64,000 nucleotides of DNA from an uncultured Acidobacteriota bacterium (lineage in GTDB: Bacteria > Acidobacteriota > UBA6911). Numbering within the stretch: the first letter of the stretch is position 1; each line of letters opens with the position of its first letter. The stretch lies in the NCBI GenBank assembly GCA_963843575.1, contig CAWJKZ010000025.1:32001-96000 (forward strand), in the 5' to 3' direction. Both the position numbers and the translations under genes were made by a program. The notes below the pieces were generated by a model that did no database searches, had not been told where the DNA came from, and saw only the letters and a list, made by a program, of their open reading frames with translations. Below, piece by piece: positions 36,194-39,439 of the stretch.

Positions 36194-37978
36194 TCAGGCA
36201 GTCATCTCAGCGCGGGCGCGCAGGTCGGAATCCAGCCGCGCCGGTTCTGCCCGCCCGGTCACGATTTCCAGGAGATCGGCGCAGACCGACAGGCTGGTGG
36301 GCCACCGGCCCGCCCCTTTGCCGCTCAGCAGCACATCCCGCTTCCGTCCGCGGACCCGGATGAGAACCCGGTTCTCGACCCCGGCGGCCCTGCTCAGCGG
36401 GTGCTGCGACGGAAGTTCCTCGGGTCTCACCTCCGCCTCCAGTCCGGCCGCGGTTCGCCGGCAGGTGGCCACCAGACGCACGGCCTTGCCCTCCTCCCGT
36501 GCACGGCGCACCCGTTCGGGGCCGATCCCCTCGATGCCGCTGCACCGGACGGCATCGGGGTCGAGCGTCGCGCCGAAGGCGGTATGCGCCAGCACCGAGA
36601 GCTTCTGGGCGCTGTCGGCACCGCTCAGGTCGAGGTGCGGGTCGGCTTCGGCAAATCCCTGTCGTTGCGCCTCGCCCAGTGCCACCGAGAATTCCACACC
36701 TTCGGCCAGCTTTTCCAGCATGTAATTGCACGTTCCGTTCAGCACTCCGGACACCTGCTCGATCGTGTGATGCCGTGCAAGCAGCCGGACGCGTTCGAGC
36801 ACCGGGACGGCGCCCCCCACGCTCGCCGAGTAAAGGAGGCGGGCGCCGCTGCGGCAGGCGATTTGCCGCAGGCCCTCGCCGTGGCGCGCGATCACGGCCT
36901 TGTTGGCGGTCACCACGCTGCGCCCGGCCGCGAGGGCGGACCGTATGAGGGATCCCGCGGGCTCCAACCCTCCGATCAGTTCGAGCACGACGTCGGTCGG
37001 CCGCTCAAGCAGGCGCGCGGGGTCGTCTGTCAGAAGCTCCCGCGGCACCCGACGGTCGCGTGATTTGCCGATGTTTCGCACCGCGATGCCGGTCAGCTCG
37101 AAGAGGTCGGGCCGGGCCGCCAGCTTCTCGAAGACCCCCATCCCGACCGTGCCCAGCCCGAGCAATGCGACGCGCAGGGGGCGCGCCCGCGGTCCGGGCT
37201 CCCCGGGTGCCGAGGTCGCCGTCCCGATCACGGTTTCGTCGGACGAACAGGCCGAAGCGAGCGCGAACGTGTACCCCCGCGCACGCGCAAATTGAAGGGC
37301 CTTGGGCTGGATCAGCCGACCCGAGACACGCGCTGCGTCCTCCCAGGAGATGGAGGAATACCGTCTCGCCGAGGCACCCGTTCGGGGATCCGTAGAGTAC
37401 ACGCCGTCGACATCCTTCAGCAGCCGGCATTTCCCCGCCCGAAGGCTCCATGCCGCAAACAGCGCGGTCAGATCGGAGCCGCCGCGTCCGAGAAGCGCCG
37501 GGCCGCCGGACGCGCTCCGGCCGAAAAAACCGGGCAACACGACGACGGGGGTGCGGGCCAGAAACCCGAGCAGCCTGCGGGTGTCGAGGGCCACCGGTTC
37601 GGAGTCGAGCGGGGGCCCGGCGACAAGCAACCCGACAGCTTCCGGGTCAACTACGGAGGCCGGCACGCCGGCCTCCTCGAGCGCCATCCCGAGCAGGGCC
37701 GCGGACGCGGTTTCGCCCGTGGCGAGCAGCCGGGCAAGGCAGCCGGGATCCGGGGCCGCGAAGCGCCGCCCGGCCAGGCCGGCCAGGCGGTCCGTGACTC
37801 CCGGGAAAGCCGACACGACGGCCAGAACGCGGAAGCCGCGCCGGAGCTCGCGGTAAATCTCCGCTACGGCGGCGTCCAGGTCGCTCGCACCGCGCAGGAC
37901 GGAGCTGCCGAACTTCAGTACGGCTACGGGTTCGGAACCGGCAGGAAGGGTGGAAACGGATGCAGGATCGTTCGACAC
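36194..37978 (-). CDS. Compact aspartokinase-homoserine dehydrogenase fusion lacking ACT domains (MetL-like)
   Basis: VLKFGSS, AVVSA, LGRGGSDLTA, KDVDGVYSTDP, then LLGLGTVG, VVTANKA, SVGGAVP, GVLNGTCNY, GFAEADP..DLSGADSAQK, GKGAG; GTG start with GAGGAG RBS. Confidence 0.85.
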   Translation of the reverse strand: MSNDPASVSTLPAGSEPVAVLKFGSSVLRGASDLDAAVAEIYRELRRGFRVLAVVSAFPGVTDRLAGLAGRRFAAPDPGCLARLLATGETASAALLGMALEEAGVPASVVDPEAVGLLVAGPPLDSEPVALDTRRLLGFLARTPVVVLPGFFGRSASGGPALLGRGGSDLTALFAAWSLRAGKCRLLKDVDGVYSTDPRTGASARRYSSISWEDAARVSGRLIQPKALQFARARGYTFALASACSSDETVIGTATSAPGEPGPRARPLRVALLGLGTVGMGVFEKLAARPDLFELTGIAVRNIGKSRDRRVPRELLTDDPARLLERPTDVVLELIGGLEPAGSLIRSALAAGRSVVTANKAVIARHGEGLRQIACRSGARLLYSASVGGAVPVLERVRLLARHHTIEQVSGVLNGTCNYMLEKLAEGVEFSVALGEAQRQGFAEADPHLDLSGADSAQKLSVLAHTAFGATLDPDAVRCSGIEGIGPERVRRAREEGKAVRLVATCRRTAAGLEAEVRPEELPSQHPLSRAAGVENRVLIRVRGRKRDVLLSGKGAGRWPTSLSVCADLLEIVTGRAEPARLDSDLRARAEMTA

Positions 37979-38043
37979 GACAGGTTCTCCTCGAGGTGAC
38001 GCGTTGACTGGACCCGGAAAGGCCGCCGGGCCGATCCGGGCAT

Positions 38044-38077
38044 AAAAAAAGCACCGCCCTTTTTTGCCGGGCCGTGC
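38044..38077 (-). terminator. Intrinsic terminator (attenuator) in the met operon leader
   Basis: Transcript GCACGGCCC-GGCAAAAAA-GGGCGGTGC-TTTTTTT: 9-bp stem with one mismatch plus U7, about 65 nt upstream of the first gene. Confidence 0.75.
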
Positions 38078-38127
38078 CGCGTCACGCAGAGAAGAACTTT
38101 GGTGCCCAGTTCGTCAACGCGAACGCG

Positions 38128-38190
38128 TCACACGCCCGGCACGGGCATGTACATGCGCATTCGCATCGTAAAACGGGTCACGTCGCTCAA
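38128..38190 (-). CDS. Putative Met-rich leader peptide MSDVTRFTMRMRMYMPVPGV
   Basis: TTG start 8 nt after GAGGA; ATG CGA ATG CGC ATG TAC ATG run; TGA at 38128; lies between promoter and terminator. Confidence 0.75.
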   Translation of the reverse strand: MSDVTRFTMRMRMYMPVPGV

Positions 38191-38215
38191 TTTCGCAGTC
38201 CTCGAACTGATTGGA

Positions 38216-38245
38216 AGCGTAGCCGAGGTGAGGCGTGGCTGTCAA
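38216..38245 (-). promoter_or_regulatory. Putative sigma70 promoter of the met leader/operon
   Basis: TTGACA(38245-38240)-N18-TACGCT(38221-38216). Confidence 0.65.
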
Positions 38246-38374
38246 GCGGCAGGTGCGGGGCGACACCTGTGTCGTGCCGTCCCCTGCCGCGCCCTGCCTG
38301 ATTGAGTCTGCGGCGAAGCCCGAGGAGAGTGGTCGCCGAGATGAAAACGAATCCGGCGCGACGGGCACGGCGGC

Positions 38375-38455
38375 AATTCGGCTTGGCGCCAAGGCGCCGG
38401 GCATTCCGGCCGCAGGACGTATGTGCAAGCGGCGCCGAGGCGCCCGCACTCCAGA
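38375..38455. repeat. Partial REP-like family B element
   Basis: GGCGCCAAGGCGCCGGGCATTCCGGCCGCAGGACG...GCGGCGCCGAGGCGCCCGCACTCCAGA. Confidence 0.65.
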
Positions 38456-38508
38456 CTCGGCGCGCATTTTGCGGTGATGGCGGCCAGCCGATCCGCTATG
38501 CTGTGGCG

Positions 38509-39439
38509 ATGAGCCAGCGGGAATTTGTCGCCCTGGGCACCGCCAGCCAGGCGCCCGACGCGGGAGAGAAGCCACAACAGCTACTTTCTTCGGTGGGACG
38601 ACGGCGGGTTCCTGTTCGACCCCGGCGAGGGCACACAGCGTCAGCTCATCTACGCGGAGATCCCCGCATGCGCCATCCGGCGCGTCTGCATCACCCACTT
38701 CCACGGCGATCACTGCCTCGGGCTTCCCGGCCTGCTCCAGCGCATGTCTCTCGACGGCTGCGGCCACCCGGTGGAGGTGTACTACCCCGAAGAGGGGCAG
38801 CCCTACTTCGAGCGGTTGCGGTCGGCGTCGGTGTTCTTCCCGCAGCTGGACATCCTTGCGCGCCCGGTCTGCTCGGCGCGGGAGGGTTTGATCGAGTTGC
38901 GGCGGTCGGATGAGTACGTGTTATACGCGCATGCCCTGGAGCACTCGGTTCCGACGCTCGGCTACCGTATCGAGGAGTTGCCCCGGCGCCATTTCATTCC
39001 GGCAAGACTGGCGGAGGCGGGCGTTTCGGGGGCTGCCGTCGGCGAGCTGCTCCGGCACGGCGCGGTGTGCGTGGAGGGGCGGGAAGTCACACTCGAGGAG
39101 ACAACGGTGATGAGGCAGGGGAGCGTCGTCGCCTTCGTGATGGACACACGACCCTGTGCCGGGGCGACCGCGCTGGCGCGCGACGCCGACTTGCTGGTGA
39201 TGGAGGCGACGTTCGCCGCGCCGGAAGAAGCCCTCGCTGCATCCTATCGTCACTCGACGGCGCGGGAGGCCGCCCAGACGGCGCGCGACGCGAGCGCGCA
39301 CCGGCTGGCCCTGACGCACTTTTCGGCGCGCTACCCCGACACCACCCCCCTCCTCGCGGAAGCCTGCGAGGTGTTCCTGGAAACCATCGCCCTGCGGGAC
39401 TTCGACCGGGTCGGCATCCCCAGGCGCCGGCAGGGATAA
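38509..39439 (+). CDS. rnz: Ribonuclease Z, with one apparent +1 frameshift near 38555
   Basis: MSQREFVALGTASQAP in one frame, then TRERSHN..LFDPGEGTQRQL, ITHFHGDHCLGLPG, MDTRPC, MEATF, HST, LTHFSARY in the next. Confidence 0.88.

Follow-up and report, generated by a model that had tools for sequence, protein, structure and literature searches.

A candidate methionine-codon leader-peptide attenuator ahead of an aspartokinase-homoserine dehydrogenase operon in an uncultured Acidobacteriota bacterium

A 64,000-nucleotide stretch of DNA from an uncultured Acidobacteriota bacterium (GenBank assembly GCA_963843575.1, contig CAWJKZ010000025.1, positions 32,001 to 96,000; hereafter the window) carries on its minus strand, between 38245 and 38044, a leader that is probably a ribosome-mediated leader-peptide transcription attenuator sensing methionine through the charging of elongator tRNA-Met, as judged from in silico folding and comparison with other genomes. 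The leader precedes an operon that begins with a gene for an aspartokinase-homoserine dehydrogenase fusion (AK-HSDH), followed by one for a pyridoxal phosphate (PLP) enzyme of Cys/Met metabolism, and it probably lets this soil bacterium turn on methionine-synthesis genes under methionine shortage. Our best reading is that the leader is dedicated to methionine and belongs to a family that extends across Acidobacteriota and Planctomycetota and is described in no Rfam model or paper that was searched. Leader-peptide attenuation is textbook material for Trp, His, Phe, Thr, Leu and Ile/Val, and methionine genes are taught as the domain of S-adenosylmethionine (SAM) riboswitches, T-boxes and the MetJ/MetR regulators.

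The original prediction for this DNA had placed before the operon a promoter of the form TTGACA-N18-TACGCT, a GAGGA ribosome-binding site, a 20-codon open-reading frame (ORF) with four alternating ATG and two Thr codons, and a hairpin with U7 about 65 nt ahead of the first gene. All of these were recovered from the letters (Table 1), with the qualifications that the -10 hexamer agrees with its consensus at only three of six positions and that the start codon of the ORF is TTG. The Thr codons are codons 5 and 8, and no Ile codon is present. Within hairpin 1:2 of the free leader, the Met-codon stretch 38168-38156 pairs with 38115-38127 and an inner stem joins 38151-38142 to 38129-38138. The terminator stem comprises nine pairs and one 1x1 mismatch below an A-rich loop of 9 nt, with an energy of -17.2 kcal/mol including its flanks, and the GTG start of the AK-HSDH gene at 37978 lies 65 nt past its U7. 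Because the upstream neighbour, an RNase Z gene (38525-39439, plus strand), is divergent, this terminator sits inside a 5′ leader and does not mark the end of another gene. The 8-nt complementarity that had been proposed as an antiterminator is exact, CCGTGCCG (38144-38137) being the reverse complement of CGGCACGG (38079-38072), and the CCGGGC of the Pro-Gly codons in the leader pairs with 38072-38067; the antiterminator of lowest energy is longer, takes in the proposed 8-nt complement and lies in a shifted register.

Table 1 Features of the leader and its operon in the window
Feature	Positions	Strand	Basis and remarks
-35 hexamer TTGACA	38245-38240	minus	letters; six of six consensus positions match
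Candidate -10 hexamer TACGCT	38221-38216	minus	18-nt spacer after -35; 3/6 against TATAAT; putative promoter element
Shine-Dalgarno-like GAGGA	38203-38199	minus	8 nt 5′ of TTG 38190
Leader ORF MSDVTRFTMRMRMYMPVPGV, 20 codons plus TGA (38130-38128)	38190-38128	minus	TTG start; translation predicted
Presumed regulatory ATG codons 9, 11, 13 and 15, alternating	38166-38146	minus	4 Met among the 19 codons after the start
Hairpin 1:2 of the untranslated leader	38181-38102	minus	minimum free energy fold of the free leader
Antiterminator, 38146-38108 paired with 38098-38056, spanning both terminator arms	38146-38056	minus	fold with masked ribosome
Intrinsic terminator, stem 38078-38069 / 38059-38050, U7 38050-38044	38078-38044	minus	folding
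AK-HSDH fusion, 594 aa, no ACT domains, first gene of the operon	37978-36194	minus	Pfam AA_kinase, NAD_binding_3, Homoserine_dh
Cys/Met-metabolism PLP enzyme, 394 aa, MetB/MetZ/MetY-like	36150-34966	minus	Pfam Cys_Met_Meta_PP, 4.6e-128
Cassette of 3.5 kb: promoter, leader, AK-HSDH and PLP-enzyme genes	38462-34966	minus	synteny with same-genus genome G001

Switching was simulated by masking a 30-nt ribosome footprint and refolding the leader to its minimum free energy (MFE). Over its whole length, the free leader has a folding z-score of -3.25, and the terminator keeps all nine pairs both in the free RNA and with a ribosome at the stop codon. When the ribosomal A site is placed at Met codon 9 or 11, none of the nine pairs is kept and the long, interrupted antiterminator helix forms instead. 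The claim that a stall on Met codons frees an antiterminator, which a ribosome at the stop codon would mask, was thus reproduced by constrained folding. Before the 3′ arm of the terminator is made, the antiterminator has an energy of -44.0 kcal/mol, a value reached by 2 of 400 shuffles, and the complete four-state switch logic appeared in 7 of 400 dinucleotide shuffles; these two tests took the place of a simpler shuffle control that did not discriminate. The 6.68-Mb assembly (64% GC) was scanned for frames no longer than 70 codons with three close in-frame ATG codons and T6 within 160 nt, and four places were returned, among which the window leader alone precedes a methionine-pathway gene. 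In silico, the leader therefore has the structure of an attenuator, namely a short ORF with its own start, enrichment of the cognate codon, a terminator, a ribosome-dependent antiterminator and genes of the cognate pathway downstream.

From these elements the following course of events is proposed. Transcription would start near 38209 and the leader would be translated from the TTG at 38190. With Met-tRNA plentiful, the ribosome would reach the TGA and cover 38146-38115, so that the terminator forms and transcription stops before AK-HSDH; with no translation at all, hairpin 1:2 would hold the same segment and the terminator would form too. With Met-tRNA scarce, the ribosome would pause with its A site at Met codon 9 or 11 and break hairpin 1:2, and the freed 38146-38108 would pair with 38098-38056 as it emerges, blocking the terminator and presumably lowering termination. 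RNA polymerase would then read the AK-HSDH and Cys/Met-PLP genes, and homoserine would be made and channelled towards methionine.

Leaders with alternating Met codons were also found in other lineages, at loci that had been collected by protein homology only (L248, L247, L209, L210, L225 and L290-L292). The closest AK-HSDH, at L248 (53% over the part present), follows a leader reading ..HQHCMRMHMPMPMRGPGSG.. (also ..CMRMHMPMPMRGPGSG..) and then T7, while the leader at L247 reads MKSDGVERMPMPMPMPMIMPCPGVTG (also ..RMPMPMPMPMIMPCPGVTG), and the window DNA at the Met run resembles both (ATGCGAATGC..ATG...ATGCCC; ATGCCC.TGCCCGGGCGTG). At L209, L210, L225 and the Terriglobales loci L290-L292, the leader peptide has the form MT....TRM[YA]M[GA]MC[TI]PGG.L.TSG. 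and is set between a TTGACA-N17-TA[GA]AAT promoter and a hairpin with a T-run, ahead of a metB-AK-HSDH-metB operon; in masked-footprint folding, L209 shows the same stall-dependent switch as the window.

A pattern drawn from the window and Terriglobales leaders (three ATG at alternate codons, CGA before them and CCSGGCG two codons after) was then scanned against one genome per species for 185,579 species. It gave 37 matches, and in 28 of them a Cys/Met-PLP or AK-HSDH gene follows on the same strand after 120-260 nt (in 26 as a homolog that starts roughly 160-260 nt downstream, and in L332 and L333 as a Cys_Met_Meta_PP gene reached where the locus ends). One further match, L315, places the same Met leader before an MFS transporter, and the remaining eight are unassigned, the ORFs tested in four of them having given no Pfam family. 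By record title, the 29 family-like matches come from Thermoanaerobaculia (9), unclassified Acidobacteriota (8), Terriglobales (7), Planctomycetota (3) and Holophagales (2). Conservation of the Met-rich ORF before orthologous operons, the comparative test attached to the original prediction, was accordingly found among distant orthologs (Terriglobales, metagenome loci and the 28 of 37 matches) and not among close relatives.

In all 17 aligned leaders of the Thermoanaerobaculia/Holophagales type, an invariant ATG stands in frame with the Met run, at distances of 30, 36, 42, 45 or 54 nt that are all multiples of three. The codons between the Met codons vary, the stop follows at a similar distance, and the T-run comes about 60 nt further on. 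In each of the 17, pairing with the 5′ arm of the terminator is possible for the segment that directly follows the Met run, with duplex energies of -22.7 to -27.4 kcal/mol versus -16.2 to -26.0 kcal/mol for the terminator hairpins. Members of the family have 3 to 6 Met codons in ORFs of 24-44 codons, compared with 20 codons in the window, and share the (C)TTGACA box with it; the window fits the family in having M-x-M-x-M and then P-G (CCSGG), complementary to the 5′ arm of the terminator (MRMRMYMPVPGV).

Two side observations concern these relatives. In the Thermoanaerobaculia-type leaders (L297, L320, L328, L326, L318, L315, L313, L316, L327, L300 and L333), CTTGACA is followed after 17-18 nt by a TAnnnT that ends about 6-10 nt before the leader ATG, with no Shine-Dalgarno sequence, and the mRNA from which these ORFs are translated may be leaderless or nearly so. 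One Acidobacteriota metagenome-assembled genome has two near-identical Met leaders, one before AK-HSDH (L318) and one before a 673-aa frame (L315:4764-7347, minus) with MFS_1 over residues 35-237, a pair that may point to a small regulon of Met leaders, perhaps with a transporter among its members.

A number of results weigh against attenuation by Met codons in the window, or against its extension to the family. At the leader itself, a consensus scanner calls no promoter and no terminator, a silence explained by the weak -10, the mismatch and a terminator loop of 9 nt where the scanner's limit is 8 nt; the weak -10 and the TTG in place of an ATG start are themselves unfavourable. Part of the role claimed for the Met run was lost in the fold model, in which the terminator is retained with the A site at Met13 or Met15, so that only two of the four Met codons work. 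The simpler control, loss of the terminator after shuffling of the middle segment, gave 240 of 500 shuffles and is uninformative. By reasoning, methionine shortage should also limit the charging of initiator tRNA and hence translation of the leader, favouring termination. Among the homology-derived loci, L247 has no T-run and L248 is ambiguous in the switch folding, and the invariance of ATG and CCSGGCG among pattern matches arises by construction, the window having been included in the pattern. When the footprint simulation was carried across the 29 family-like loci, five had no run of at least four T within 140 nt, seven had no terminator in the free MFE fold, and only six of the remaining 17 gave up the terminator when the ribosome was stalled on the run's first Met. 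In the Thermoanaerobaculia type, a 13-pair terminator always wins thermodynamically, and switching there would have to be kinetic and co-transcriptional. From the 17 aligned sequences, RNAalifold recovered the terminator and small local hairpins, with no informative covariation. The pairing segments do not vary in the family alignment, so that covariation can neither back nor test the helices, and the helix covariation that had been looked for was not shown. Finally, in 40 relatives, including the same-genus genome G001 and the unpublished genome G034, a protein search found no full-length 594-aa fusion and a search with the 211-nt leader DNA found nothing better than E 0.017, and since there is no close ortholog among them, the window element is without direct covariation support.

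The recurrence of the peptide motif itself in Acidobacteriota and Planctomycetota (RMPMGMRRPGAG, RMYMGMCTPGG, MRMAMHMPGPGG and the window motif given above) brings in a different reading, in which the nascent chain R-M-x-M-x-M...P-G-[AGV] arrests the ribosome on SAM or methionine and so sets the RNA fold, tRNA charging being irrelevant. Metabolite-dependent arrest peptides are known in TnaC and in the MTO1 region of plant cystathionine gamma-synthase, and P-G is likewise retained behind the Met run in leaders whose discovery did not depend on the pattern. We regard such a sensor as unlikely. The P-G codons (CCGGGC) also pair with the terminator arm in every member examined, and this pairing explains their conservation at the RNA level. 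Residues differ freely from member to member both within the Met run and beyond P-G, the ORF length ranges from 20 to 44 codons, and in the window the stop comes directly after P-G-V. A sensor whose arrest under excess SAM or methionine induced the genes would also run counter to the needs of a biosynthetic operon, except where a later arrest site favoured the terminator. Were the nascent-chain reading true, the leader would be a bacterial counterpart of metabolite-sensing arrest peptides, with methionine or SAM read in the exit tunnel; that an arrest leader of this kind repeatedly replaced SAM riboswitches at metB/AK-HSDH operons of Acidobacteriota and Planctomycetota is an equally doubtful history.

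The same RNA platform could also work without translation, as a riboswitch or a protein- or tRNA-bound switch in which the ORF is incidental and the AUGs are recognition elements, for example for the CAU of tRNA-Met. AUG is complementary to the tRNA-Met anticodon, orthologous operons carry SAM-binding-like RNA at the same position, and from class to class the blocks of leader and terminator show unusually little variation. Known RNA families give this possibility little to build on. The lack of a SAM-I or T-box core noted in the original prediction was borne out by an Rfam scan of 37500-38800 with 4227 families at E-values up to 10, in which no SAM class, T-box (RF00230), Thr_leader (RF00506) or other amino-acid leader matched and the only match was a chance snoRNA at E 5.9. 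Six loci of the Met-leader family likewise gave no Rfam match at E up to 0.1, twenty orthologous loci gave none at gathering thresholds, and SAM-I (RF00162), the one SAM class searched genome-wide, was not found in the bacterium's own genome (88% complete). The reading frame tells against an untranslated switch as well, since it is kept in all 17 leaders with indels that are all multiples of three, an invariant start ATG, a stop at conserved distance and period-three variation between fixed ATGs. In addition, GAGGA stands 8 nt before the TTG in the window and no conserved aptamer-like helices are predicted beyond the terminator. Taken together, these points make an untranslated switch quite improbable.

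A further alternative accepts translation but not methionine sensing, and treats the element as a translated upstream ORF with a leaky terminator that gives constitutive damping or responds to the general translation rate, for example in the stringent response. In 11 of 17 family members the MFE simulation does not reproduce the switch, and a passage of one paper reports that in some Actinobacteria changes to the candidate regulatory codons of ilvB leaders left regulation unaffected (PMC1262725). Yet Met codons recur in protein-found leaders of several lineages whose peptides are otherwise different, the link to the methionine pathway is tight (28 of 37 pattern matches), and the alternates at orthologous operons are SAM-type sensors, all of which leaves non-specific control with a distinctly low probability. 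That the element is an accidental short frame beside an ordinary hairpin is very unlikely, for although it is seen in one genome with no close ortholog among 40 relatives, and GC-rich leaders fold readily enough that 240 of 500 shuffles lose the terminator when masked, only four comparable frames occur genome-wide, with the window's alone at a met operon, the combined switch criteria appear in 7 of 400 shuffles, and the family recurs across lineages.

The assignment of the operon to AK-HSDH and metB holds by Pfam domains. The AK-HSDH protein also scored above the cut-off of an NCBIfam homoserine dehydrogenase subfamily, and every NCBIfam equivalog fell under its cut-off for the PLP enzyme, so that its exact specificity can be given only as MetB/MetZ/MetY-like. 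A gene for a PIN-domain protein follows. The genome of the bacterium (G000) has further AK and HSDH genes, among them a ThrA-type frame of 861 aa, and given these genes it is plausible that the window fusion is a methionine-dedicated isozyme. No obvious Thr leader was seen at the ThrA-type gene on contig C14. Elsewhere in this genome, outside the window (contig C25, about 201100-201240, plus strand), a short ORF MSTTTATSTNG has a TTGACT-N17-TATAGG-like promoter before it and a hairpin with T6 after it, and may be either a leader of the Thr type or a gene for a small peptide; a scan of the genome for amino-acid runs before T-runs was too noisy for use.

The leader and its operon appear to form one unit. 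In genome G001, of the same genus, the cassette is missing from the syntenic site (L335, G001:C16:108500-114500) and the PIN and RNase Z genes stand 160 nt apart, their proteins being 93% and 75% identical, respectively, to those of the window. On its left side the cassette ends precisely with the stop codon of the PLP-enzyme gene, and its GC content is 68.9% compared with 63.5% and 66.2% in the flanks. As the cassette is missing whole, the regulatory leader travels with its operon, and this absence explains why gene and leader were not found in relatives. Across a sample of the phylum, the AK-HSDH fusion occurs in 5 of 401 genomes, the bacterium's own included; no Met leader was found in the other four, and in one of them (G391) nothing was recognisable before the gene.

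More distant AK-HSDH orthologs, 36-53% identical, are controlled in at least four ways according to lineage, one of them the alternating-Met leaders described above. In Steroidobacteraceae and related loci (L003-L013, L017, L018 and L020), a SAM-II-like element with a T7 terminator lies about 70-200 nt upstream of AK-HSDH (RF00521, 28.7 bits, E 1e-4), and a genome of the Acidobacteriota phylum (G182) has an element of this kind at 28.1 bits (L206:896-967). All of these matches are below the gathering score of 36, and the element may be a divergent SAM-II/SAM-V subclass beyond the current model. In G061 and G127, SAM-I/IV-like cores with long insertions (RF01725, 32.8 and 27.8 bits against a gathering score of 41.1) stand upstream of metB-AK-HSDH operons (L208:108-260 and L207:265-419, minus) and show the motifs GCAUC.AGAG, GGCAACC, GGUGCC, GAUGCGG and GGCAAAA. 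The below-threshold matches of both kinds are likely but unproven SAM elements, and because they precede orthologs, the operon appears to be under Met/SAM-type control elsewhere. A Pirellulaceae locus (L294, about 750-950) has a similar SAM-I/IV-like core, judged by eye only.

About two dozen Sphingomonadales- and Caulobacterales-type loci (L014, L015, L022-L027, L030, L041, L047, L061, L064, L215, L219, L221, L224, L227, L229-L231, L234, L239, L245 and L268) have Thr/Ile-rich leaders ending in ..RGGSG with zero to four or more Met codons, for example ..AMITTITITRERGGSG and ..MTIMFTMITTRMRGGAG, each with a GC-rich hairpin and a T-run and lying 100-300 nt upstream of AK-HSDH. The subset of these that was scanned gave no Rfam Thr_leader match at gathering thresholds. 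As a side observation, a Myxococcota ortholog (L016:2330-2500, AK-HSDH then PLP enzyme) has neither leader nor terminator, and three copies of the palindrome TGACGCG..CGCGTCA just upstream of the gene resemble a transcription-factor operator.

The letters of the leader are corroborated by Logan contigs from four independent public sequencing runs, which match it at 99% identity or more. Two contigs from RNA libraries carry G>A at 38051, by which a G-C pair of the terminator becomes G-U and the pair is kept, and in one DNA contig an additional A behind 38043 extends the U-run to U8. Two metatranscriptome runs of one study gave one contig each (37931-38194 and 37990-38192) that bridges the terminator. 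RNA ends are invisible in contigs, and the RNA-library contigs may derive from DNA, a DNA-run contig breaking at nearly the same upper place (38201); for both reasons no conclusion is drawn from them on transcription start, termination or expression. On contig C24 of the same genome (255314-256878), the Rpb2_6 domain of RpoB is split over three frames, either by assembly indel errors or by real frameshifts; the leader region itself is corroborated by the independent contigs. A fragment of RpoB shares 66-71% identity with many Acidobacteriota genomes, which marks the host as Acidobacteriota-like.

The original prediction knew of Met codons in some thr leaders but of no dedicated met-operon attenuator. 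The full text searched likewise contained no dedicated Met leader-peptide attenuator, while subscription papers and supplementary tables, such as the candidate lists of PMC2965389, may hold some. The excerpts of PMC2965389, PMC1262725, PMC3766115 and PMC2659441 that were available contain none, and a passage of a 2013 survey lists the attenuator specificities as His, Leu, Thr, Trp, Ile/Val and Phe (PMC3766115). A leader read through methionine codons would, if true, add a new amino-acid specificity to attenuation. An excerpt of a 2010 survey names only Proteobacteria and Actinobacteria and treats leader peptides beyond these two phyla as a novelty (PMC2965389), and the family would extend leader-peptide systems to Acidobacteriota and Planctomycetota. 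The occurrence of the same operon behind SAM-II-like elements, SAM-I/IV-like elements, Thr/Ile/Met leaders or Met leaders, according to lineage, amounts to a natural experiment in sensor exchange. Such leaders would also improve the annotation of short ORFs in genomes of soil bacteria and could become an Rfam-style model, and they raise the question of how a shortage of elongator Met-tRNA is sensed with a ribosome that needs initiator Met-tRNA.

In its architecture, the window leader is like trpL and thrL, and it lies outside every Rfam leader, SAM and T-box model. As in trpL, the position of the ribosome would pick antiterminator or terminator and the untranslated leader terminates; the amino acid is another one, and the regulatory codons alternate as M-x-M-x-M-x-M where those of trpL are adjacent. 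SAM-II (RF00521) and SAM-I/IV (RF01725) riboswitches have the same place and output before the orthologs of Steroidobacteraceae, G182, G061 and G127, with matches below their gathering scores, but sense SAM by an aptamer, whereas the window has a translated ORF and no aptamer match. Excerpts of two papers describe a methionine T-box at the Staphylococcus aureus metICFE-mdh operon (PMC3771891, PMC7913692). It shares with the switch proposed here the signal, charging of tRNA-Met, and the output, transcription termination, and differs in that a T-box acts without a ribosome, by direct binding of uncharged tRNA; the window has no T-box match.

Closest in kind is the thr leader (thrL, RF00506) of gammaproteobacterial thrA, which likewise sets a short translated leader and a terminator before a bifunctional AK-HSDH and follows the same 1:2 / 2:3 / 3:4 logic, and alphaproteobacterial-type orthologs of the window gene have Thr/Ile leaders ending in ..RGGSG. 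Unlike thrL, the window leader has Met as its regulatory codon (4 of 20, with two Thr and no Ile) and no Rfam match, its host is an Acidobacteriota bacterium, its 594-aa enzyme has no ACT domains, and a PLP enzyme comes next where thrB and thrC follow thrA. Vitreschak and colleagues are said to have predicted, in 2004 in FEMS Microbiol Lett, Met codons besides Thr and Ile codons in the thrA leaders of Pasteurellales, which would share with the window Met codons in a leader peptide that controls AK-HSDH. In Pasteurellales, methionine is reportedly one of three amino acids sensed at the sole AK-HSDH, whereas in the window Met dominates the leader of a Met-specific operon, and the genome has AK and HSDH genes besides this one.

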